A stretch of DNA of 63,056 bases, filler included, from Anaerolineae bacterium (GTDB taxonomy: Bacteria > Chloroflexota > Anaerolineae > B4-G1 > DUEL01), in assembly GCA_041082215.1 (NCBI GenBank). It is 15 parts of 15 records of this genome, joined end to end, with 100 filler letters (N's around TTAATTAATTAA, not from the genome) between each part and the next. Parts side by side here need not be neighbours in the genome. Positions count along the whole stretch, not along the records: positions 23,842 to 25,546 come from JBDOIF010000068.1; 14 more parts are not named here. The stretch is one strand, 5' to 3'. This document shows positions 23,742 through 29,071 of the stretch, in pieces (position 1 is the stretch's first letter; each line of letters opens with the position of its first letter). The position numbers and the translations under genes were made by a program. The notes beneath the pieces are model-generated. The model did not search any database and was not told the origin of the DNA. It saw nothing but the letters and a program-made list of their open reading frames with translations.

Positions 23742-23842
23742 NNNNNNNNNNNNNNNNNNNNNNNNNNNNNNNNNNNNNNNNNNNNTTAATTAATTAANNN
23801 NNNNNNNNNNNNNNNNNNNNNNNNNNNNNNNNNNNNNNNNNA

Positions 23843-24664
23843 CAACTTCGACCCCAGGGCCAGGTCGGGCCGCTCCGACCCCAGACATCGGCCCAGCCGC
23901 AGCTTCAGCGGCTTCAGTCTCCAGCCCAGCCCCCCCGGCCTCAGACCCCGCCCCGGTGGGCGCAGCGAGAATACCAGCACGGTGACGAGCTGCTCCCCAG
24001 CTATCCCTTCATCCAGTGGGTCAACCGGGGTGATATGCTGGAGCCGCGCCAGGCGCGAGGTGGCTTTGCCTGCCCGCTGAGCCAGAAACTGCCCATCCCC
24101 GACAGCATCTATGCCGTGCTCCATCACCCCGAAGGCAACACGACCGACGTGTACTACACCGACCACCTGACCGTCGCGGTGCTGCGGACGCGGGACGCTT
24201 GGGTGGATCCCAAGACGCGCATGCGCTTGCCGGGCTATATGCCCGATGCGCGCAAAAAGCTCCAGGTCCTGTGCTACCTCAAGACCGATGAGGGCGCCCA
24301 CGGCCTGATCATGCTGACCTTCATCGGCTTGGCCGGTAGCCGTTTCAAGGCCGCTCGCCAGGACTTTATCAACGCCGTCCGCAAGGCCACGAACGGCAAA
24401 GCCCCGGGCTATGCCTTCTGGATGACCGTCCTCGCCAGCGATCCCGAACTTGTCGGCAAGGGCAACAACAAGTCGCCTATCACTCCGGTAACGTGGGATG
24501 GTGACTTCGACCCCGACCGGGACTACATCGGCGACGAGGCCCTGGACGGCATTGACTGGGCAGAGGTAGAACGCTGGGCCAATGCCTGGAAGACCCCCGG
24601 CCCCAACGGGGAAGGGGAGGTAGAAACCGGGCCAGAGCCGGAAGAGGAAGAGATCCCCTTCTAG
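23843..24664 (+). CDS. Hypothetical mobile-element protein with an SSB-like acidic tail, 5'-truncated
   Basis: Frame open from the contig start (P/Q-rich, then YPFIQWVNRG...GGFA); ends EPEEEEIPF. Confidence 0.65.
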   Translation, partial: QLRPQGQVGPLRPQTSAQPQLQRLQSPAQPPRPQTPPRWAQREYQHGDELLPSYPFIQWVNRGDMLEPRQARGGFACPLSQKLPIPDSIYAVLHHPEGNTTDVYYTDHLTVAVLRTRDAWVDPKTRMRLPGYMPDARKKLQVLCYLKTDEGAHGLIMLTFIGLAGSRFKAARQDFINAVRKATNGKAPGYAFWMTVLASDPELVGKGNNKSPITPVTWDGDFDPDRDYIGDEALDGIDWAEVERWANAWKTPGPNGEGEVETGPEPEEEEIPF

Positions 24665-24677
24665 CCAGACCACAGTT

Positions 24678-24716
24678 GAGGAGGCAGGGGTGCAGATCAC
24701 TGCACCCCTCCTCCTC
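24678..24716. other. 17-bp stem-loop
   Basis: GAGGAGG(c)AGGGGTGCAG-atca-CTGCACCCCTCCTCCTC, no U-tract. Confidence 0.6.
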
Positions 24717-24748
24717 CTGACAAGGATGCTGAAGAAATACAAGCAGAC

Positions 24749-24825
24749 ATACCCCCGACAGGGGGGACAAAACGCCCCCCATCGGGGGTATTTTTGTCCT
24801 CCCTGCCTTCAGGAGGACGGAAATG
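24749..24825 (+). promoter_or_regulatory. Putative two-state translational switch upstream of radC
   Basis: Hairpin 24749-24791 plus anti-SD 24792-24802 pairing with SD 24812-24822, versus alternative helix 24759-24772/24792-24805. Confidence 0.55.
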
Positions 24826-25536
24826 AAACCCAGACAACTCTCATACCTCGACCTTGAAGAACCCCTCCTCCATCGCCTCCCCCTCCGGGAGCAGCCGGTC
24901 CAGCGGATCGAGCGGCTGGGCGAGTGTGCCGTGGCAACAACGGAGGTCCTGGCCGTTCTTATCGGAGGGCGACGCCAGATGGAGACTTCCGTGAAGCTGC
25001 TGGAGACTTTTGGCAGTCTCCCGGCCCTTGCCCGGGCCAGCTTCCACGAACTGCAAGAGGCCGGGCTGGGCAAGGTTGCTGTTGCCCGGTTGAAAGCGGG
25101 ACTGGAGCTGGGCCGGCGACTGAGCCAGTACCAGAAGGACGATAAACCCCAGATCACCACTCCCGCTGACGTGTGGGACCTGCTCTGGGCAGAGATGGGG
25201 ATGACTCTGCCAGAGCAGGAACAGTTGTGGATCATCCTCCTCAACACCCGGAACCGGGTGATTGGCCTCCAAATGCTCTATCAAGGGAGCCTTAACCAAT
25301 CCCAGGTCCGGGTGGGGGAGGTCTTCCGCGAGGCGGTACGGCGCAACTGCGCTGCAATCGTTGTCGCCCACACCCATCCGTCCGGCGATCCTTCCCCCAG
25401 CCCGGAGGATGTGGCGGTGACACGGGACCTGGTGGCAGCAGGAAAGCTCCTGGGAATCGAGGTGCTGGACCACCTGATTATCGGCCAGGGACGATGGGTA
25501 AGCCTGCGGGAGCGGGGATTGGGGTTCGCAACCTGA
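24823..25536 (+). CDS. radC: RadC-family JAB-domain protein
   Basis: PVQRIERLG..EVLAVLI, EQL..ILLNTRN, HTHPSGDPSPSPED, VLDHLIIG. Confidence 0.92.
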   Translation: MKPRQLSYLDLEEPLLHRLPLREQPVQRIERLGECAVATTEVLAVLIGGRRQMETSVKLLETFGSLPALARASFHELQEAGLGKVAVARLKAGLELGRRLSQYQKDDKPQITTPADVWDLLWAEMGMTLPEQEQLWIILLNTRNRVIGLQMLYQGSLNQSQVRVGEVFREAVRRNCAAIVVAHTHPSGDPSPSPEDVAVTRDLVAAGKLLGIEVLDHLIIGQGRWVSLRERGLGFAT

Positions 25537-25741
25537 TAGACAGAAANNNNNNNNNNNNNNNNNNNNNNNNNNNNNNNNNNNNNNNNNNNNTTAATTAATT
25601 AANNNNNNNNNNNNNNNNNNNNNNNNNNNNNNNNNNNNNNNNNNNNCTCGCTCACGACAAAACATCGGCGCTACTGCGCAGGCAAACCGCCTGGTTGCGT
25701 CTGTCAAAGAACCGGATCAGAATACCTGACACCCGCACATT

Positions 25742-25770
25742 ATTGTAACAGAAGACGGTCGCTTTGTCAA
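25742..25770 (-). promoter_or_regulatory. Sigma70-type promoter pointing away from the IS
   Basis: Minus strand TTGACA-17 bp-TACAAT. Confidence 0.6.
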
Positions 25771-25775
25771 GACCC

Positions 25776-27210
25776 CGCATTCACTCATGTAAAATGTTAC
25801 CGAGATGGTATCATTCCCTCAAATGATAATGTTACCGAGGGAACGATGTCCATCGAAGAGAAGATGTCCATTGATGAACGACGGAAGTACCTGCGCATGA
25901 TGCAGAAGCGCTATCTTGGGGCCAATCGCCGGGAACGAGGTCGGCTCCTGGACGAGATGGAAGCGGTGACCGAACTGCACCGCAAGAGTCTCATTCGGTT
26001 GATGCACCACGATTTGGAACGCCGTCCCCGCCGTCGGCAGCGAGGTCGGAGCTACGGGCCGGAGGTGGACGATGCGCTGCGGGTCATCGCCGAGAGCAGC
26101 GACTTTATCTGCGCCGAGCGGTTGACCCCCAACTTGCCTTGGCTGGCCCGGCACCTGGCGGCCCACGGCGAACTGGAGGCCTCTCCTGGGTTGCTGGAAC
26201 AACTGGAACGGATCAGTGTATCCACTGTGAGGCGGATCCTGACCCGCATCCGGCAAGATGAACCCCGCCTGAGGCGTCGCCGGCCCCGTCCGGCTCACCC
26301 CCTCATCCGTCAGGTGCCGATGAAGCGTATCTCCTGGCAAGAGCAAGAAGTGGGCCATTTCGAGACCGATCTGGTCCACCACGGGGGACCGAGTGCCTCC
26401 GGGGAGTATGTCTGTACCATCCAGATGGTCGATGTCGCTACCGGCTGGAGCGAACGGGTGGCCGTGTTGGGCCGAAGTTATCTGGTCATGGCTGATGGAT
26501 TCCAGCGCATTCTGGCCCGTCTCCCCTTCCCTGTCCGTGAGATCCACCCCGACAACGGCAGTGAGTTCTTCAATCATCACCTGCTGCGCTTCTGGAACAG
26601 CCTCGAGCCGAAGGTGCTCATCTCCCGCAGCCGACCATACCACAAGAACGACAACCGCTTTGTCGAACAGAAGAACTCTACCCTGGTCCGCGCCTACCTG
26701 GGCTATGACCGCTACGATACCGTCGCCCAGACATTGGCTATCAACCTCCTCTACGACAAGATGTGGCTCTACTACAACCTCTTCCAGCCGGTGATGCACC
26801 TGTCCGACAAGAGCTGGGGGCAGCCCGAAGGTCATCCTGCGCACCTGAAGCGTCGCTACGACCGGGCCCGCACCCCCTTCGACCGTCTGTGCGACAGCGA
26901 GGCCATCTCTCCCGCCCAACGGCAACGACTGGAGGCCCTGCGGAACCAGACCAACCCTCGCCAACTGCGGCGGGAGATCTACGACTTGATCGACTATATC
27001 TCCTCCCTGCCCGGCGCTGCCCCTGGGACGACCGAGGATGTCCGACTCACCTTGATGTCTGCCGCCAGCTCGCTCGATAGCGATGACCACCTGCCATCTC
27101 CGGTGGTCGTCCCTTCACGCAAAACGGAAGAAAGGAGAACGACACGTCCGGTAACATTATCATTTGACTGAACAACTCCTCTCGGTAACATTATCATTTG
27201 ATTTGACACG
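25776..27210 (+). mobile_element. Insertion sequence with DDE (rve) transposase and doubled subterminal inverted repeats
   Basis: Left tcatgtaaaatgttaccgag and tcaaatgataatgttaccgag; right cggtaacattatcatttga twice (27149, 27183); exact tips uncertain. Confidence 0.75.
25846..27171 (+). CDS. Integrase-core (rve) DDE transposase
   Basis: ETDLVHHGG, DVATGW, HPDNGSEF, RSRPYHKNDNRFVEQKN. Confidence 0.9.
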   Translation: MSIEEKMSIDERRKYLRMMQKRYLGANRRERGRLLDEMEAVTELHRKSLIRLMHHDLERRPRRRQRGRSYGPEVDDALRVIAESSDFICAERLTPNLPWLARHLAAHGELEASPGLLEQLERISVSTVRRILTRIRQDEPRLRRRRPRPAHPLIRQVPMKRISWQEQEVGHFETDLVHHGGPSASGEYVCTIQMVDVATGWSERVAVLGRSYLVMADGFQRILARLPFPVREIHPDNGSEFFNHHLLRFWNSLEPKVLISRSRPYHKNDNRFVEQKNSTLVRAYLGYDRYDTVAQTLAINLLYDKMWLYYNLFQPVMHLSDKSWGQPEGHPAHLKRRYDRARTPFDRLCDSEAISPAQRQRLEALRNQTNPRQLRREIYDLIDYISSLPGAAPGTTEDVRLTLMSAASSLDSDDHLPSPVVVPSRKTEERRTTRPVTLSFD

Positions 27211-27288
27211 GCAGTTTGCCCTCTTGAAGGGCTGTGTGCGACACGCAAGACTAGGCGCGCCTGCCGTAGCAAGCCCCTCGCTGACGGA

Positions 27289-27532
27289 TCATCCGCCCCA
27301 GAACATGACCACCATCGCCCCCAGGACCAGGAAAGGACCGTACGGAATCGCGGTAAAGAGGGAATAGCGTCGCAGAATGACCGCCCGCACCAACCAATAG
27401 ATCGAACCGAACAGACCCCCTGTCAGAACGGTAATAAACAGCGCCGTCAACACTGCCGGGAATCCCAGGATCAGGCCGATAAATCCTCCCAGCCGGACAT
27501 CCCCAAAGCCAAACGCCACTGCATGGAGCGGC
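27289..27532 (-). CDS. Prepilin peptidase (A24), C-terminal fragment
   Basis: GFGDVRLGGFIG ... IPYGPFL. Confidence 0.8.
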
Positions 27533-27888
27533 NNNNNNNNNNNNNNNNNNNNNNNNNNNNNNNNNNNNNNNNNNNNTTAATTAATTAANNNNNNNNNNNN
27601 NNNNNNNNNNNNNNNNNNNNNNNNNNNNNNNNCATCCAGGCTCTGTTTGACAACAACCGCATTTATTCTGGTTTTTGACCCCCATTCTCACTGCCGGCGT
27701 TATTGCCGGAACGAGAGGCCCCACACCGTGACGCCTCACGTATGACCTGTGACGTAATGGGGCAACGTGATGACAAATCCCAATCCCAGGGAGGTGATGC
27801 TATTACAACTGAACAAAGCCGTGTCCCCGGGCTGACGGGGACGACCGCCGGGCGTAACCCGGCCCAGACACTATAGAGAGAGGTGAAA

Positions 27889-28971
27889 ATGACAGACATG
27901 CAACTGCTCTACGAGGACTACCGGGCAGAAGAACTCCAGTGGCTGCCCACGGCCCTGGAGCGGCTGGGGACCATCATCTGCAACCCCAGCAACCCTATCC
28001 CCGGCCTTCCCTGCCTTCCAGGGGGCCCAATAGACCGGGAATGGGCAAACAACCGACTCCTGGTCAAAACCCCCTGGGGACTTGCAGAACCGTTGTGGGG
28101 AGCCGATACGGATGGCCTCTGGCCCTTCGCTCCCCTCTACCGCCTGGTCATTCCTGACAACACCCCCCTGCCAGAACCGCAAATCCCCCAGACCGGCTAT
28201 GCCGTCTGGGACACCGTTACCGGCCTGGTGACCCTCCACGCCGACGACGGAGGCGAACCGGTGCATCTCCGTCCGACCCTGGACGAAGCGCGAAACGGGT
28301 CACAGATAATGGACTGCATCCGCGCGGACCTGGCCCGGCAGGGAATCCCCATCTTCCCGACCAGGCTTTATCGGCGCGACTCCCTTCCCTATCCCTGGGA
28401 AAATGTGTTCAAGACGGCGCGGGTCAACAACCGGGAGGTGAGCGTCCCCCTGGTCGGCTATGCCCTGGATAGGGGGGAAGTAGTCTACCTCCACATCGTG
28501 GGCAACAAGTCGGCCATCCGCTCCATCTGGGCCACGCTGCACCAGGGAGGCGGCAGGAAGCCGGTCTACATCGAAGGCGAAAGTTTCCTGACCGGCGTCC
28601 CGACCGGCAACTATGTCTCTTACTCCACCCCCGTCCTGGCCGACACCGGGGACTACCGGATGGTCATCCTCGACCGCCGGGCCATCAACGCCGGGGGCGA
28701 GGATGTCGCATACCTGGTGGTCCCCGGGACTCACCTGAAACAGACAGATGACCTGCTGGCCGCATTCGCCCACCGCCTGGACAGCGTGCTCCCTATCCCG
28801 GTGCTCCCGGAGTGGGGAGCAGTGCTGTACCGGAAAGGAGTCGAGCAAAGGCTGATCCGCCATCTGACTTATGGCGGAGATATAGCCGCCGGCCATGCCA
28901 TCGTCAACGACCCGCGATGGATCGAACTGGTGCAGAGCCTGATCCAGTCCGGGGAGATCGAAACCATCTAG
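27889..28971 (+). CDS. Hypothetical mobile-element protein
   Basis: Long ORF with SD GAGGTG; 'YLHIVGNKSAIRSIWATL', 'LPIPVLPEWGAVLY'; precedes the DUF6094-like gene. Confidence 0.7.
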   Translation: MTDMQLLYEDYRAEELQWLPTALERLGTIICNPSNPIPGLPCLPGGPIDREWANNRLLVKTPWGLAEPLWGADTDGLWPFAPLYRLVIPDNTPLPEPQIPQTGYAVWDTVTGLVTLHADDGGEPVHLRPTLDEARNGSQIMDCIRADLARQGIPIFPTRLYRRDSLPYPWENVFKTARVNNREVSVPLVGYALDRGEVVYLHIVGNKSAIRSIWATLHQGGGRKPVYIEGESFLTGVPTGNYVSYSTPVLADTGDYRMVILDRRAINAGGEDVAYLVVPGTHLKQTDDLLAAFAHRLDSVLPIPVLPEWGAVLYRKGVEQRLIRHLTYGGDIAAGHAIVNDPRWIELVQSLIQSGEIETI

Positions 28972-28987
28972 ACAACTCTCAGAAACA

Positions 28988-29071
28988 CCCCGGTGGGGGT
29001 ACGTCTGCTGCCCCCGCCGGGGGCGCATTCTGTACCTCCGCCGGGCCAGACACAGGAGGTACAGAATGCGT
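28988..29071 (+). promoter_or_regulatory. Putative two-state translational switch upstream of the DUF6094-like gene
   Basis: Hairpin 28988-29022 plus perfect 16-bp CGCATTCTGTACCTCC/GGAGGTACAGAATGCG covering SD and ATG, versus alternative helix 28989-29002/29032-29045. Confidence 0.6.

Follow-up and report, generated by a model that had tools for sequence, protein, structure and literature searches.

The leader of a radC gene in an Anaerolineae genome (Chloroflexota) can be folded in two mutually exclusive ways, one of which masks the ribosome-binding site (RBS), and the question raised by this locus is whether the leader acts as a translational switch or whether its pairing serves another role. 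The original prediction, made from the sequence alone, was of a two-state switch over the radC RBS. After following it up computationally, we consider the leader to be a bistable, kinetically controlled RBS-masking element and one copy of a new, repeated family of cis-acting mRNA structures, a reading to which we give a probability of roughly 0.55. The host of the element is a mobile-element gene module of hot-spring Anaerolineae, and translation initiation on radC, as on every other gene with such a leader, is probably governed by the element.

The window, i.e. the whole stretch of 63,056 nucleotides that was analysed, is a chain of MAG contigs with N spacers between them, and the finding sits on a contig of 1,705 bp (window positions 23842-25546). 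The genes alongside it in the window are therefore not neighbours of the contig carrying the radC leader. Coordinates are given in Table 1.

Table 1. Features of the radC leader, its contig and the second copy of the element (window coordinates)
Feature	Position	Strand	Basis	Details
ORF-A, 3' part of upstream gene	23843..24667	+	translation; open at contig 5' end	stop TAG 24665-24667; acidic C-terminal tail ...EEEIPF
H0, near-perfect GC-rich hairpin	24678..24716	+	fold of 24660-24850	directly 3' of ORF-A stop; GGAGG in 5' arm, CCUCC in 3' arm; no U tract after it
A/U-richer unpaired linker 5' of element	24717..24748	+	folds	
H1, nested hairpin of four runs	24749..24791	+	RNAfold, terminator scan	C1 24752-24756, G1 24761-24766, C2 24775-24780, G2 24784-24788; ATACCCCCGA 24749-24758; TCGGGGGTAT 24782-24791
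Segment A (S1), SD mimic, G1 plus H1 loop	24759..24772	+	5' arm of ON helix	GGGGGG 24761-24766
Segment B, H1 3' arm	24774..24789	+	C2:G2 mini-hairpin in ON fold (constrained fold)	CCCCCC 24775-24780
Segment C (S2), anti-SD	24792..24805	+	partner of A (ON) or D (OFF)	TTTTGTCCTCC 24792-24802
Segment D (S3), SD, 6-nt spacer, AUG	24810..24825	+	3' arm of H2	SD GGAGG 24812-24816; GGAGGACGGAA 24812-24822; AUG (ATG) 24823-24825
radC	24823..25536	+	full length; HhH N-domain + JAB domain; PF04002, NF000642	PF04002 at 5.6e-40; NF000642 at 188.8 bits
p362, gene of unassigned family	27883..28971	+	upstream of second element copy	query for finding related modules
Second element copy, contig C73	28988..29071	+	H1 28988-29022, H2 29023-29071, AUG 29066	

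Two exclusive folds over the radC start site

All the segments from which the two folds had been built are present where they were placed, and RNAfold of 24745-24830 returned exactly the proposed OFF fold: the MFE structure (-47.6 kcal/mol) is made of H1 and the SD-masking hairpin H2 (24792-24822). This fold has a z-score of -5.98, was equalled in stability by none of 200 dinucleotide shuffles and holds in a 191-nt context (-89.2, z -7.06). H2 contains two G-U pairs and reaches 6 bp past the SD core. The ON helix joins A and C by 14 contiguous pairs, one of them G-U; stacking in the ON fold amounts to 14 + 6 bp in the radC leader and, in relatives, to 15-17 + 5-7 bp. As had been claimed, the fold made of H1 and H2 and the ON fold exclude each other, and the former masks the radC SD.

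The arrangement is rare in the genome. The complete assembly of 3.5 Mb contains 13,420 SD-plus-start sites with ORFs of at least 100 codons. We screened them for an ungapped helix of at least 11 bp over the SD whose 5' arm also takes part in an ungapped helix of at least 14 bp with an upstream segment, and found the radC leader alone; seven sites qualify when the lengths are relaxed to 9 and 11 bp. A relaxed C/G-run quartet occurs at two loci in the 3.5 Mb, on contigs C71 and C73, and in both it is followed by an anti-SD, an SD and an ATG. The masking energy by itself is unremarkable, since the cost of opening the RBS, 11.9 kcal/mol, lies at the 84th percentile among 500 GGAGG-ATG sites of this GC-rich genome.

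Taken by itself, this copy could also suggest that H1 and the U run after it are the intrinsic terminator of ORF-A, that H2 is an incidental SD hairpin and that the alternative pairing has no biological meaning. H1 is a 16-pair GC-rich stem followed by seven U in nine bases (U run 24791-24795), and a terminator scan places terminator-like sites at 24774-24789, with ATTTTTGTCC behind them. However, the scan also calls the minus strand and returns four sites against 1.7 in shuffles, 10 of the 11 aligned leaders (all but this one) have no U run behind H1 but the complement of their own loop tail in its place, and the same element is found inside operon-like gene rows. We thus regard a terminator as unlikely.

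In this copy the ON fold is not an equilibrium partner of the OFF fold

The predicted ON helix does exist and is worth -21.2 kcal/mol alone, but at equilibrium it is negligible, with a pair probability of about 1.7e-6 in the radC leader at 37 °C. The best fold that contains it (-40.0) lies 7.6 kcal/mol above the MFE and the ON fold with SD and AUG free (-35.7) lies 11.9 kcal/mol above it, all these energies being 37 °C values whereas the organism comes from hot springs. Barriers computed with findpath, which are upper bounds and consider direct paths only, came to about 20 kcal/mol from ON to OFF, 31.6 from OFF to ON and 27.5 from the nested H1 to ON. With estimated barriers of about 20-30 kcal/mol and an ON state 7.6-11.9 kcal/mol worse, the leader cannot be a freely equilibrating two-state switch. 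Given the much greater stability of OFF and the height of the estimated barriers, the state in this copy would have to be set kinetically or by an active input rather than by equilibrium.

In the computed landscape, the order of synthesis offers such a low-barrier kinetic route. When the RNA is truncated just 5' of the SD, ON is the MFE in 10 of the 11 G-run leaders, and 10 of the 11 have to cross 0-2.8 kcal/mol to get from the state with two small hairpins to ON, against 11.5-19.3 kcal/mol to reach the nested H1. In the radC leader the early kinetic branch that leads from C1:G1 to G1:C2 costs only 6.6 kcal/mol to cross, so that the nested H1, and hence OFF, may well prevail during transcription.

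The equilibrium also differs between copies. In the 34 model matches that end in an SD and a start codon, a few of which (as in the 72-match and 26-leader sets below) are reverse-strand matches of the same palindromic loci, the equilibrium probability of A:C is at least 0.7 in nine, at most 0.11 in 23 and in between in two.

The element is repeated within a mobile gene module

The radC gene downstream of the leader is the second copy in this genome and is 62% identical to the resident radC on contig C155. Searches for related loci with RadC found nothing above about 60% identity among the best 80 loci of each collection, and a single viral locus; none of the 198 loci obtained had similarity to ORF-A or to the leader. 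These searches were unproductive because the loci that they find carry the resident type of radC. ORF-A itself had no match in Pfam, PHROG or NCBIfam and none by tblastn in phage and plasmid collections. We found seven homologues, of which the full-length ones measure 441-475 aa and two have a SWIM zinc finger.

In relatives, radC stands in a module with Prim-Pol, clamp, methylase-helicase and DUF6573 genes, which fits a mobile-element setting; that radC is an establishment gene, as originally inferred, or that the element is conjugative would be conjecture. Some of these modules also hold an RNase III-like gene (PF14622 at 6.9e-24 in relatives of family f3); on the element fragments of this genome none was found, the only copy being that of the host on contig C24.

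The second copy of the element in the genome precedes an N-terminal gene fragment (MRIAAIEKLGYYPTP...) that runs off contig C73, and its H2 covers the AUG. Leaders orthologous to it were found at 18 loci, and at L283 the gene 3' of such a leader encodes a DUF6094 methylase-helicase. Indeed, homologous leaders in Anaerolineae genomes precede radC, DUF6094 methylase-helicase, beta clamp, DUF3307 and other genes of one module, with several copies per module, each ahead of a different gene, in gene rows that look like operons. A scan of whole genomes with a model of the element gave matches in 10 of the 145 genomes of the order, and in our own genome none beyond C71 and C73. Five new copies on which the model had not been trained (three within 1.3 kb in genome G504, plus those in G485 and G032) all have the A:C hairpin ahead of SD and AUG. 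In four of the five the SD is free in the MFE, which suggests that the masked state may not be general; nor is the SD predicted to be masked in many of the relatives.

The H1 pattern alone is unspecific as a search term, as the anti-SD/SD part was present in none of 22 viral loci. Matches to it in family f3 (L248-L252) proved to be a different, REP-like palindrome, and class-level matches were mostly G/C low complexity.

Both helices are kept copy by copy on the sense strand

Both helices exist and are kept copy by copy across relatives. In an ungapped test asking for A:B, A:C and C:D helices of at least 7 bp each, 15 of the 29 module leaders pass, compared with 67 of the 13,420 background sites, and a triple-helix score of at least 30 is reached by 13 of the 29 and by two of the 13,420. 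B is the most conserved piece of the family and forms helix 2 of the model. The covariation among homologous leaders that had been put forward as a check is found: the RNAalifold consensus of 11 leaders aligned with MAFFT is the ON fold, with two-sided changes at 5 of 16 pairs. In the model alignment of 72 matches, which was fitted to the ON structure and whose copies are related by descent, 92.5% of cells pair (74.7% in shuffles), two-sided changes occur at 15 of the 16 pairs and the covariation score is 0.470 against 0.196 in shuffles; none of 500 shuffles reaches 0.470, and the slid controls give at most 0.14. The alternative helix is energetically negligible at equilibrium in this copy, yet conserved in relatives.

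The changes are matched in three places, with the loop tail, the 5' part of the anti-SD and the spacer varying together between leaders. The triplet is ACAAAA/UUUUGU/ACGGAA in our radC leader, ACAGAG/CUCUGU/ACAGAG at L213 and UGCGCA/UGCGCA/UGCGCA at L255.

The strand on which the structure forms can be told from its wobble pairs. An A-C mismatch is the antisense strand's counterpart of a sense G-U wobble. With Watson-Crick pairs only, five of the 29 leaders pass the helix test; allowing G-U raises this to 15 and allowing A-C only to six. The structure therefore lies on the sense strand, and the view that its G-U pairs favour an RNA-level structure is borne out. MFE comparison does not discriminate between the strands, sense being more stable in 15 of the 29.

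These wobble pairs also bear on the idea that the hairpins work in single-stranded DNA rather than in RNA, where they would give a transferred strand an Frpo/ssi-like promoter or a priming signal. According to the accessible parts of two papers (PMC11541004; PMC13478746), hairpin promoters precede such genes in the leading regions of conjugative elements, and the radC, methylase-helicase, SSB-like-tail protein and Prim-Pol genes found here resemble these regions, as do repeated hairpins ahead of early genes of a transferable element. As far as the accessible part of PMC11541004 goes, the stem of Frpo contains its -35 and -10 boxes and forms in the strand being transcribed, whereas our element, which is GC-rich and about 80 nt long, has no -35 or -10 boxes and places its wobble on the sense strand. 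Furthermore, the scan of 23800-25900 found no promoter-like hexamers on the + strand, and the 3' arm of H2 is itself the SD, spacer and AUG and covaries with them. We therefore consider a role in single-stranded DNA very unlikely.

A plain conserved processing or stability hairpin is the serious rival to our reading. Here the long hairpin alone would be functional, i.e. A:C with the B mini-hairpin as its cap, stacking to about 20 bp, and serving as an intercistronic RNase III-type processing site, a 5'/3' stabiliser or an insulator, with the SD-masking H1 and H2 a by-product of G/C runs and of a CCUCC in the stem. An RNase III site spans some two turns of double-stranded RNA. Support comes from the ON fold, which is the consensus, covaries best of all structures and dominates at equilibrium in nine of the 34 matches, and also from the free SD in most untrained copies, the placement of copies ahead of each of several genes in a module and the RNase III-like gene in the modules of f3 relatives; besides, any stem bearing CCUCC is trivially complementary to GGAGG. 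However, the preference of C for its own D goes beyond the shared SD core. In 26 dereplicated leaders, cognate C:D duplexes come to -16.0 kcal/mol against -11.6 for non-cognate ones (permutation p <= 2e-4), even if the leader's own D ranks first in its row for only five of the 26; the corresponding values for A:C are -26.7 and -16.4. A also resembles the D of its own leader more than that of others (8.58 vs 7.69, n = 26, p 0.003). Moreover, the masking helix extends past the SD core in the radC leader and over the AUG in the C73 copy, and the RNase III-like gene was not found on the element fragments of this genome. The processing hairpin is in our view quite possible but not the probable explanation.

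We left out two MAFFT alignments (A1 and A2) that were out of register, as well as two generic scanners that were too permissive: an MFE-based one, which flagged 28 of 4,943 sites up to contig C77 and missed C71 in a 135-nt context, and a duplex-based one, which flagged 538 of 846.

Comparison with known regulatory RNAs

The element is absent from Rfam 15. At the radC leader the Rfam scan returned nothing credible at E <= 10, in agreement with the statement that no riboswitch aptamer is recognisable, and in nine related loci nothing matched at the gathering threshold. Term searches of the open-access literature found no description of it, which is not proof of absence.

In its layout the element comes closest to the expression platforms of translational riboswitches such as thiM TPP, with the same competition between anti-anti-SD, anti-SD and SD and the same exclusive helices. 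The anti-SD can pair with the SD or, exclusively, with an upstream SD-like segment, a three-part layout kept across copies. A classical switch that senses a ligand, temperature, an sRNA or a protein would share this layout, which is what the original inference was built on. Unlike the riboswitch platforms, the element has no aptamer or conserved ligand pocket, its upstream competitor is itself locked in a hairpin by a fourth segment, B, and copies of it precede many unrelated genes of a single mobile element. The Rfam results given above speak against such a switch as well, and loops and tails differ in every copy, which leaves no conserved ligand pocket. In silico, H1 and H2 both stay folded from 15 to 85 °C and the ON probability, 1e-3 at 65 °C, does not exceed 0.035 over this range. 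An RNA thermometer was dismissed because H2 does not melt in the physiological range, its computed probability being 0.9 at 37 °C, 0.76 at 65 °C and 0.59 at 85 °C. We give little credence to a classical sensing switch.

A second comparison is with RF01754, which also precedes methylase, anti-restriction and integrase genes and for which we know of no assigned function. Both are cis-regulatory candidates in the leaders of mobile-element genes, of radC and of others with DNA-related roles. RF01754, with 149 positions, four successive hairpins and conserved single-stranded stretches, differs from our A-B-C-D element of about 80 nt. In the accessible part of its description, the radC motif is listed for Proteobacteria under this number (Weinberg et al. 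2010, PMC2864571). The model had no match at E <= 10 in 24300-25200, and its best score in the whole genome, on another contig, was 14.2 bits against a cut-off of 40.

Masking of an RBS by alternative pairing is a known principle. In the MS2 maturation gene and in hok mRNA, the RBS is open only in a transient nascent fold, which high barriers separate from the stable fold that masks it. Each of these is a single gene whose pairings are long-range, whereas the present element is a compact module of 80 nt before many genes, and its likeness to them lies in a kinetic route that was computed, not observed. The lambda cIII mRNA has two alternative folds, one of which exposes the RBS, and translation of the lambda N leader, T7 0.3 and adhE is activated by RNase III. 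Our element resembles these systems in its alternative mRNA folds, and RNase III may act on the hairpins between early genes of the mobile element; related modules contain an RNase III-like gene, which was not found with the copy in this genome. What is unusual here is that a compact, aptamer-less module of four segments is copied before many different genes of one mobile element, with its variable parts re-matched in three places per copy.

A model for the leader

Overall, the original interpretation is partly supported. Returning to the bistable RBS-masking leader, we propose that four consecutive segments compete: A, an SD mimic made of a G run and a variable tail; B, its first partner; C, the anti-SD; and D, which holds SD, spacer and AUG. 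Pairing of A with B and of C with D would give the OFF state, with the radC RBS masked, and pairing of A with C, together with the B mini-hairpin, would give the ON state and free the RBS.

Of the specific routes, the most likely, though it must be called tentative, is that ON forms first during transcription and the masked H1 and H2 follow later. Local hairpins C1:G1 and C2:G2 would leave the variable tail single-stranded, and C could dock on this tail and zip into A:C before D is synthesised. The nascent mRNA would then be translatable and would later relax, or be driven, into the masked fold. Somewhat less likely, in our opinion, is the reverse order, in which masking is the default state of the leader, to be lifted by a factor acting on B or cleaving the long ON hairpin. 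Melting of H1 by a ribosome halting at the upstream stop was rejected, as the distance to that stop is 82 nt in this copy and mostly 16-40 nt in relatives.

A bolder, and doubtful, version would have one reusable, ligand-free RNA toggle of four segments (SD mimic, its keeper, anti-SD and SD) gating nearly all replication and anti-defence genes of the module in a mobile element of thermophilic Anaerolineae. Its state would be written in transcription and frozen by barriers of 20 kcal/mol, the mRNA would be translatable only when nascent or after a reset by an element-encoded RNase III-like factor, and the element would be the functional Chloroflexota counterpart of the orphan proteobacterial radC motif. 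If this were true, it would hint at what that motif does.

Should the leader be a true switch, it would represent a simple, portable and sequence-programmable translational gate from thermophiles. It would also make testable how the early genes of mobile elements are timed, including the link, long without explanation, between structured leaders and radC and methylase genes. Should it be only a processing hairpin, it would still be a new family of structured RNA with dozens of members and clear covariation.

Flanking features and sequence variants

A hairpin comparable to H0, and perfect, also stands 3' of the ORF-A homologue at L213, and most members of the family have an A/U-rich 5' flank, as read from the first 8 columns of alignment A4. 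The idea of a promoter in the interval from H0 to H1 was dismissed, as the scan called none. In run X8, which is labelled metatranscriptomic and is 'probably DNA', a contig of 221 nt spans 24718-24938; since contigs cannot reveal the end of a transcript, it carries no inference. Run X4 holds a variant of the leader with three differences (24781 A>T, a T inserted after 24790 and 24806 C>T), all at positions that are unpaired in both the ON and the OFF fold.

The radC leader is predicted to fold in two ways

Folding of the radC leader with RNAfold (24745-24830) gave a structure of -47.6 kcal/mol (z -5.98), equalled by none of 200 shuffles, and this structure is the OFF fold of the original prediction, with every named segment at the place assigned to it. 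In hairpin H1, a mimic of the Shine-Dalgarno sequence (SD; segment A) pairs with its first partner, or keeper (B); in H2, UUUUGUCCUCC, containing the anti-SD (C), is paired with GGAGGACGGAA (D: SD, spacer and AUG), reaching the AUG (see table). The predicted ON helix, A paired with C, was also recovered, with 14 contiguous pairs including one G-U (-21.2 kcal/mol). When we searched for an ungapped SD helix of at least 11 bp whose 5' arm also lies in an ungapped upstream helix of at least 14 bp, the radC leader was the sole qualifier among 13,420 sites in the assembly that combine an SD with a start codon. A natural variant (run X4; a single contig, depth 13) carries three changes in the leader (24781, after 24790, 24806), none of them at a place that pairs in either fold.

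Features of the radC leader, its surroundings and related sites
Feature	Position	Details
Contig spacers (examples)	23742-23841; 25547-25646	N44-TTAATTAATTAA-N44
Contig C71	23842-25546	1,705 bp; carries the leader
ORF-A, 3' part	23843-24667	contig C71
H0	24678-24716	hairpin after ORF-A stop
Spacer ORF-A/radC		155 nt
H1	24749-24791	OFF fold
H2	24792-24822	OFF fold
ON helix	24759-24772 / 24792-24805	
Pair in H1	24758:24782	A-U here; G-C in G024:C439
H1 loop tail		ACAAAA here; ACAGAG in G024:C439
Anti-SD 5' part		UUUUGU here; CUCUGU in G024:C439
Spacer		ACGGAA here; ACAGAG in G024:C439
radC, full length	24823-25536	PF04002 5.6e-40; NF000642 188.8 bits
radC 3'-terminal 314 nt	25213-25526	aligns with G000:C155:32655-32968
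Transposase contig	25647-27532	1.9 kb, separate
rve-type transposase	25846-27171	PF00665 30.5 bits, slightly below cut-off
Promoter-like sites	25770-25742; 25852-25823	minus strand
Element copy on C73	28988-29071	
H2 of C73 copy	29023-29071	

The ON fold is thermodynamically negligible in the radC leader: the best structure containing it reaches -40.0 kcal/mol (-35.7 with SD and AUG free), and the pair probability of its helix, ~1.7e-6 at 37 C, is no higher than 1e-3 at 65 C. Of the switch originally proposed, the architecture and its conservation were borne out, whereas switching at equilibrium was not. Opening the ribosome-binding site (RBS) would cost 11.9 kcal/mol, only the 84th percentile among 500 comparable sites of this GC-rich genome.

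The leader shares its working layout (anti-anti-SD, anti-SD, SD) with the expression platforms of translational riboswitches, but lacks an aptamer and has the keeper as a fourth segment. A riboswitch or thermometer is unlikely, as no Rfam family matched and temperature did not flip the leader in silico. Its gene context also occurs in the gene list of the proteobacterial radC motif RF01754; however, the model of that motif gave no match, and its four serial hairpins over 149 nt are unlike the architecture seen here. The motif is tabulated for Proteobacteria as RF01754 in a table of a 2010 paper (PMC2864571). In the literature searched on the radC motif, leading regions and anti-anti-SDs, we found no description of the element.

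A third hairpin, H0, is near-perfect, GC-rich and without a U tract; a hairpin of the same description follows the ORF-A stop in genome G024 (locus L213, ~4560-4520, minus strand). The 5' arm of H0 carries GGAGG 4 nt ahead of a GTG opening a 55-codon frame, which crosses the entire leader and ends at 24857.

Related copies and conservation of the helices

Among the matches listed in searches by radC, all belonged to the resident type, with ~50-60% identity, and none of their loci showed similarity to ORF-A or the leader. A DNA search of the order yielded one contig with both an ORF-A homologue and radC, G024:C439, in whose radC leader the layout is unchanged and the letters differ; a second copy of the element lies 100 nt upstream. 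A plain terminator, for which a hairpin followed by a U run might be taken, is unlikely, as the U run lacks conservation; it is gone after H1 in G024:C439. A pattern search of our own assembly revealed a further copy on contig C73, ahead of a gene starting MRIAAIEKLGYYPTP, and there is another in G462; a relaxed quartet of C/G runs occurs only on C71 and C73 in the 3.5-Mb assembly. Owing to the symmetry of H2 in the C73 copy, its minus strand likewise reads GGAGGTACAGAATG, which is why the covariance model described below also matches the reverse strand (30.7 bits).

Homologues of p362, the gene upstream of the C73 copy, were found at 18 loci in 14 other genomes among 145 of the order. Nearly all have the element layout downstream, ahead of an orthologous gene, in widely different sequences (at locus L255 the three segments read GGGGG-UGCGCA / UGCGCA-CCUCC / GGAGG-UGCGCA-AUG), and the radC genes of these modules are likewise preceded by the element. 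A strict test for three ungapped helices of at least 7 bp (A:B, A:C and C:D over the SD) was passed by 15 of 29 module leaders compared with 67 of 13,420 background sites, and scores of at least 30 were reached by 13 and 2 of them, respectively. The radC leader passes the dedicated 11/14-bp test but fails the strict one, because its G1:C2 helix (between two of the C/G runs of H1) has only 6 bp and its outer H1 helix overlaps A by less than 6 nt. With Watson-Crick pairs only, 5 of the 29 leaders passed; allowing G-U raised this to 15 (62 wobble pairs), allowing A-C instead only to 6, indicating structure on the sense strand, as RNA would have, and upholding the earlier argument from G-U pairs. 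A Frpo-like DNA promoter is unlikely, since the strand is wrong and the boxes are missing.

The RNAalifold consensus of 11 leaders (MAFFT alignment) is the ON fold, a 12-bp A:C helix with the 4-bp C2:G2 mini-hairpin, with changes on both sides in five pairs. A covariance model from this alignment had 72 matches (E <= 1) across the 283 kb of related loci, where single modules contain several. In the alignment of these matches, which was fitted to the ON structure and comprises related rows, some from the reverse strand, 92.5% of cells pair (shuffles, 74.7%), 15 of 16 pairs changed on both sides, and the covariation score is 0.470 compared with 0.196 in shuffles, none of 500 attaining it, and at most 0.14 in slid controls. 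The alternative helix is thus conserved and covarying, as the original prediction needed. Among 26 dereplicated leaders, A:C is more stable with own than with foreign partners (-26.7 vs -16.4 kcal/mol), as is C:D (-16.0 vs -11.6 kcal/mol, p <= 2e-4), and A resembles its own D more than foreign ones (8.58 vs 7.69, p 0.003); the masking helix too is therefore matched copy by copy, even though C:D is best in its row for only five leaders.

Scanning whole genomes, the model matched in 10 of the 145, and in our own genome nowhere beyond C71 and C73. The copies outside the training set, in G504 (three within 1.3 kb), G485 and G032, all have an A:C hairpin ahead of SD and AUG (5/5), with the SD free in the minimum free energy (MFE) structure in four. 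The element is a conserved, repeated, sense-strand leader with the ON helix as its core, and the radC leader thereby represents a structured-RNA family, so far undescribed, that belongs to a mobile element. At L248-L252 (G473, G475, G511, G522; family f3) there is another palindromic repeat, longer than the element and not part of it (…CCCCCCCTCTAACTCC-hairpin-GGATTAAGGGGGGG…), which looks like a REP-like intergenic repeat.

Which state is populated

For 34 model matches ending in SD and start, the equilibrium probability of A:C was at most 0.11 in 23, at least 0.7 in nine and intermediate in two; the competing fold masks the RBS in the radC leader and several other copies. Direct-path barriers in the radC leader, all upper bounds, are 19.7 (ON to OFF), 31.6 (OFF to ON) and 27.5 kcal/mol (nested H1 to ON). 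As the chain grows, its MFE structure passes from C1:G1 through G1:C2, nested H1 and ON to OFF, with ON at 63-72 nt, when the SD is not yet out. Once C1:G1 and C2:G2 have formed as small hairpins, the chain faces a barrier of 1.4-2.8 kcal/mol to ON and of ~13 to nested H1, the former being low because the anti-SD docks on a free loop tail; this route likewise favours ON in 10 of 11 G-run leaders. The early branch deciding access to the two-hairpin state has a modelled barrier of 0.9-9.8 kcal/mol, 6.6 in the radC leader.

We infer that a bistable leader controls translation initiation, its state being set kinetically or by active input, and put the probability of a real translational switch at about 0.55. 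Tentatively, the RBS might be open while the RNA is nascent and then masked; a little less probably, it would be masked by default and then opened by a factor or cleavage. Analogues are the MS2 maturation gene, hok, lambda cIII and N, T7 RNase III sites and Mu com/mom. We consider less probable the main rival, in which the long hairpin is the only functional part and serves in processing, stability or insulation; it is strengthened by an RNase III-like gene in related modules.

The RNase III-like protein (PF14622 6.9e-24) is encoded beside Prim-Pol in related f3 modules, namely L283 (10929-11708, minus strand), L277, L281, L285, L286, L287 and L278, with the match in two pieces in L278 and L286. 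The contigs of this genome yielded just the host copy, on C24.

Genomic context

The window consists of ~15 contigs of a metagenome-assembled genome linked by artificial spacers, so genes flanking a spacer are not genomic neighbours. In the modules, the order is ORF-A ... radC, p362, methylase-like gene, which makes it probable that C71 and C73 are neighbours in the real genome. The L283 module encodes RNase III-like, Prim-Pol, RadC, DUF3307, beta clamp, p362, DUF6094 methylase-helicase fusion and DUF6573 proteins, and at L199 an ORF whose translation reads as tyrosine-recombinase-like adjoins the ORF-A homologue; this gene content suggests that the module is mobile, or accessory at the least. 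Near-identical DNA is present in hot-spring metagenome runs, where loose contig ends show alternative continuations beyond radC.

A second radC, on C155, is 62% identical and of the type found in relatives. The 3' ends of both genes share 86% DNA identity (proteins, 62% overall), which could reflect recombination or gene conversion; the shared stretch could also underlie the assembly break 10 nt past the radC stop.

ORF-A had no Pfam, PHROG or NCBIfam match. It and its few homologues (P0001-P0006) end in an acidic tail and IPF (…EEEIPF, …EEIPF, …GDIPF), which we take to be the signature of the bacterial SSB C-terminal tip. Full-length relatives measure 441-475 aa and begin with a SWIM zinc finger, seen in two of the seven homologues; in L200 the finger is encoded by a small ORF of its own. 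SSB-client mimicry or DNA binding would be possible roles of ORF-A in the mobile element.

In G024, the interval from ORF-A to radC (L213, ~4505-3980, minus strand) contains small ORFs, one of ~36 codons, whose products have zinc ribbons of the CxxC...CxxC type; they resemble Mu Com and similar small activators of translation that bind RNA. On a module contig of G427, RF00029 (a domain of group II introns) matches with 45.4 bits (L276, 6399-6477, minus strand), and the two promoter-like sites on the transposase contig are strong.
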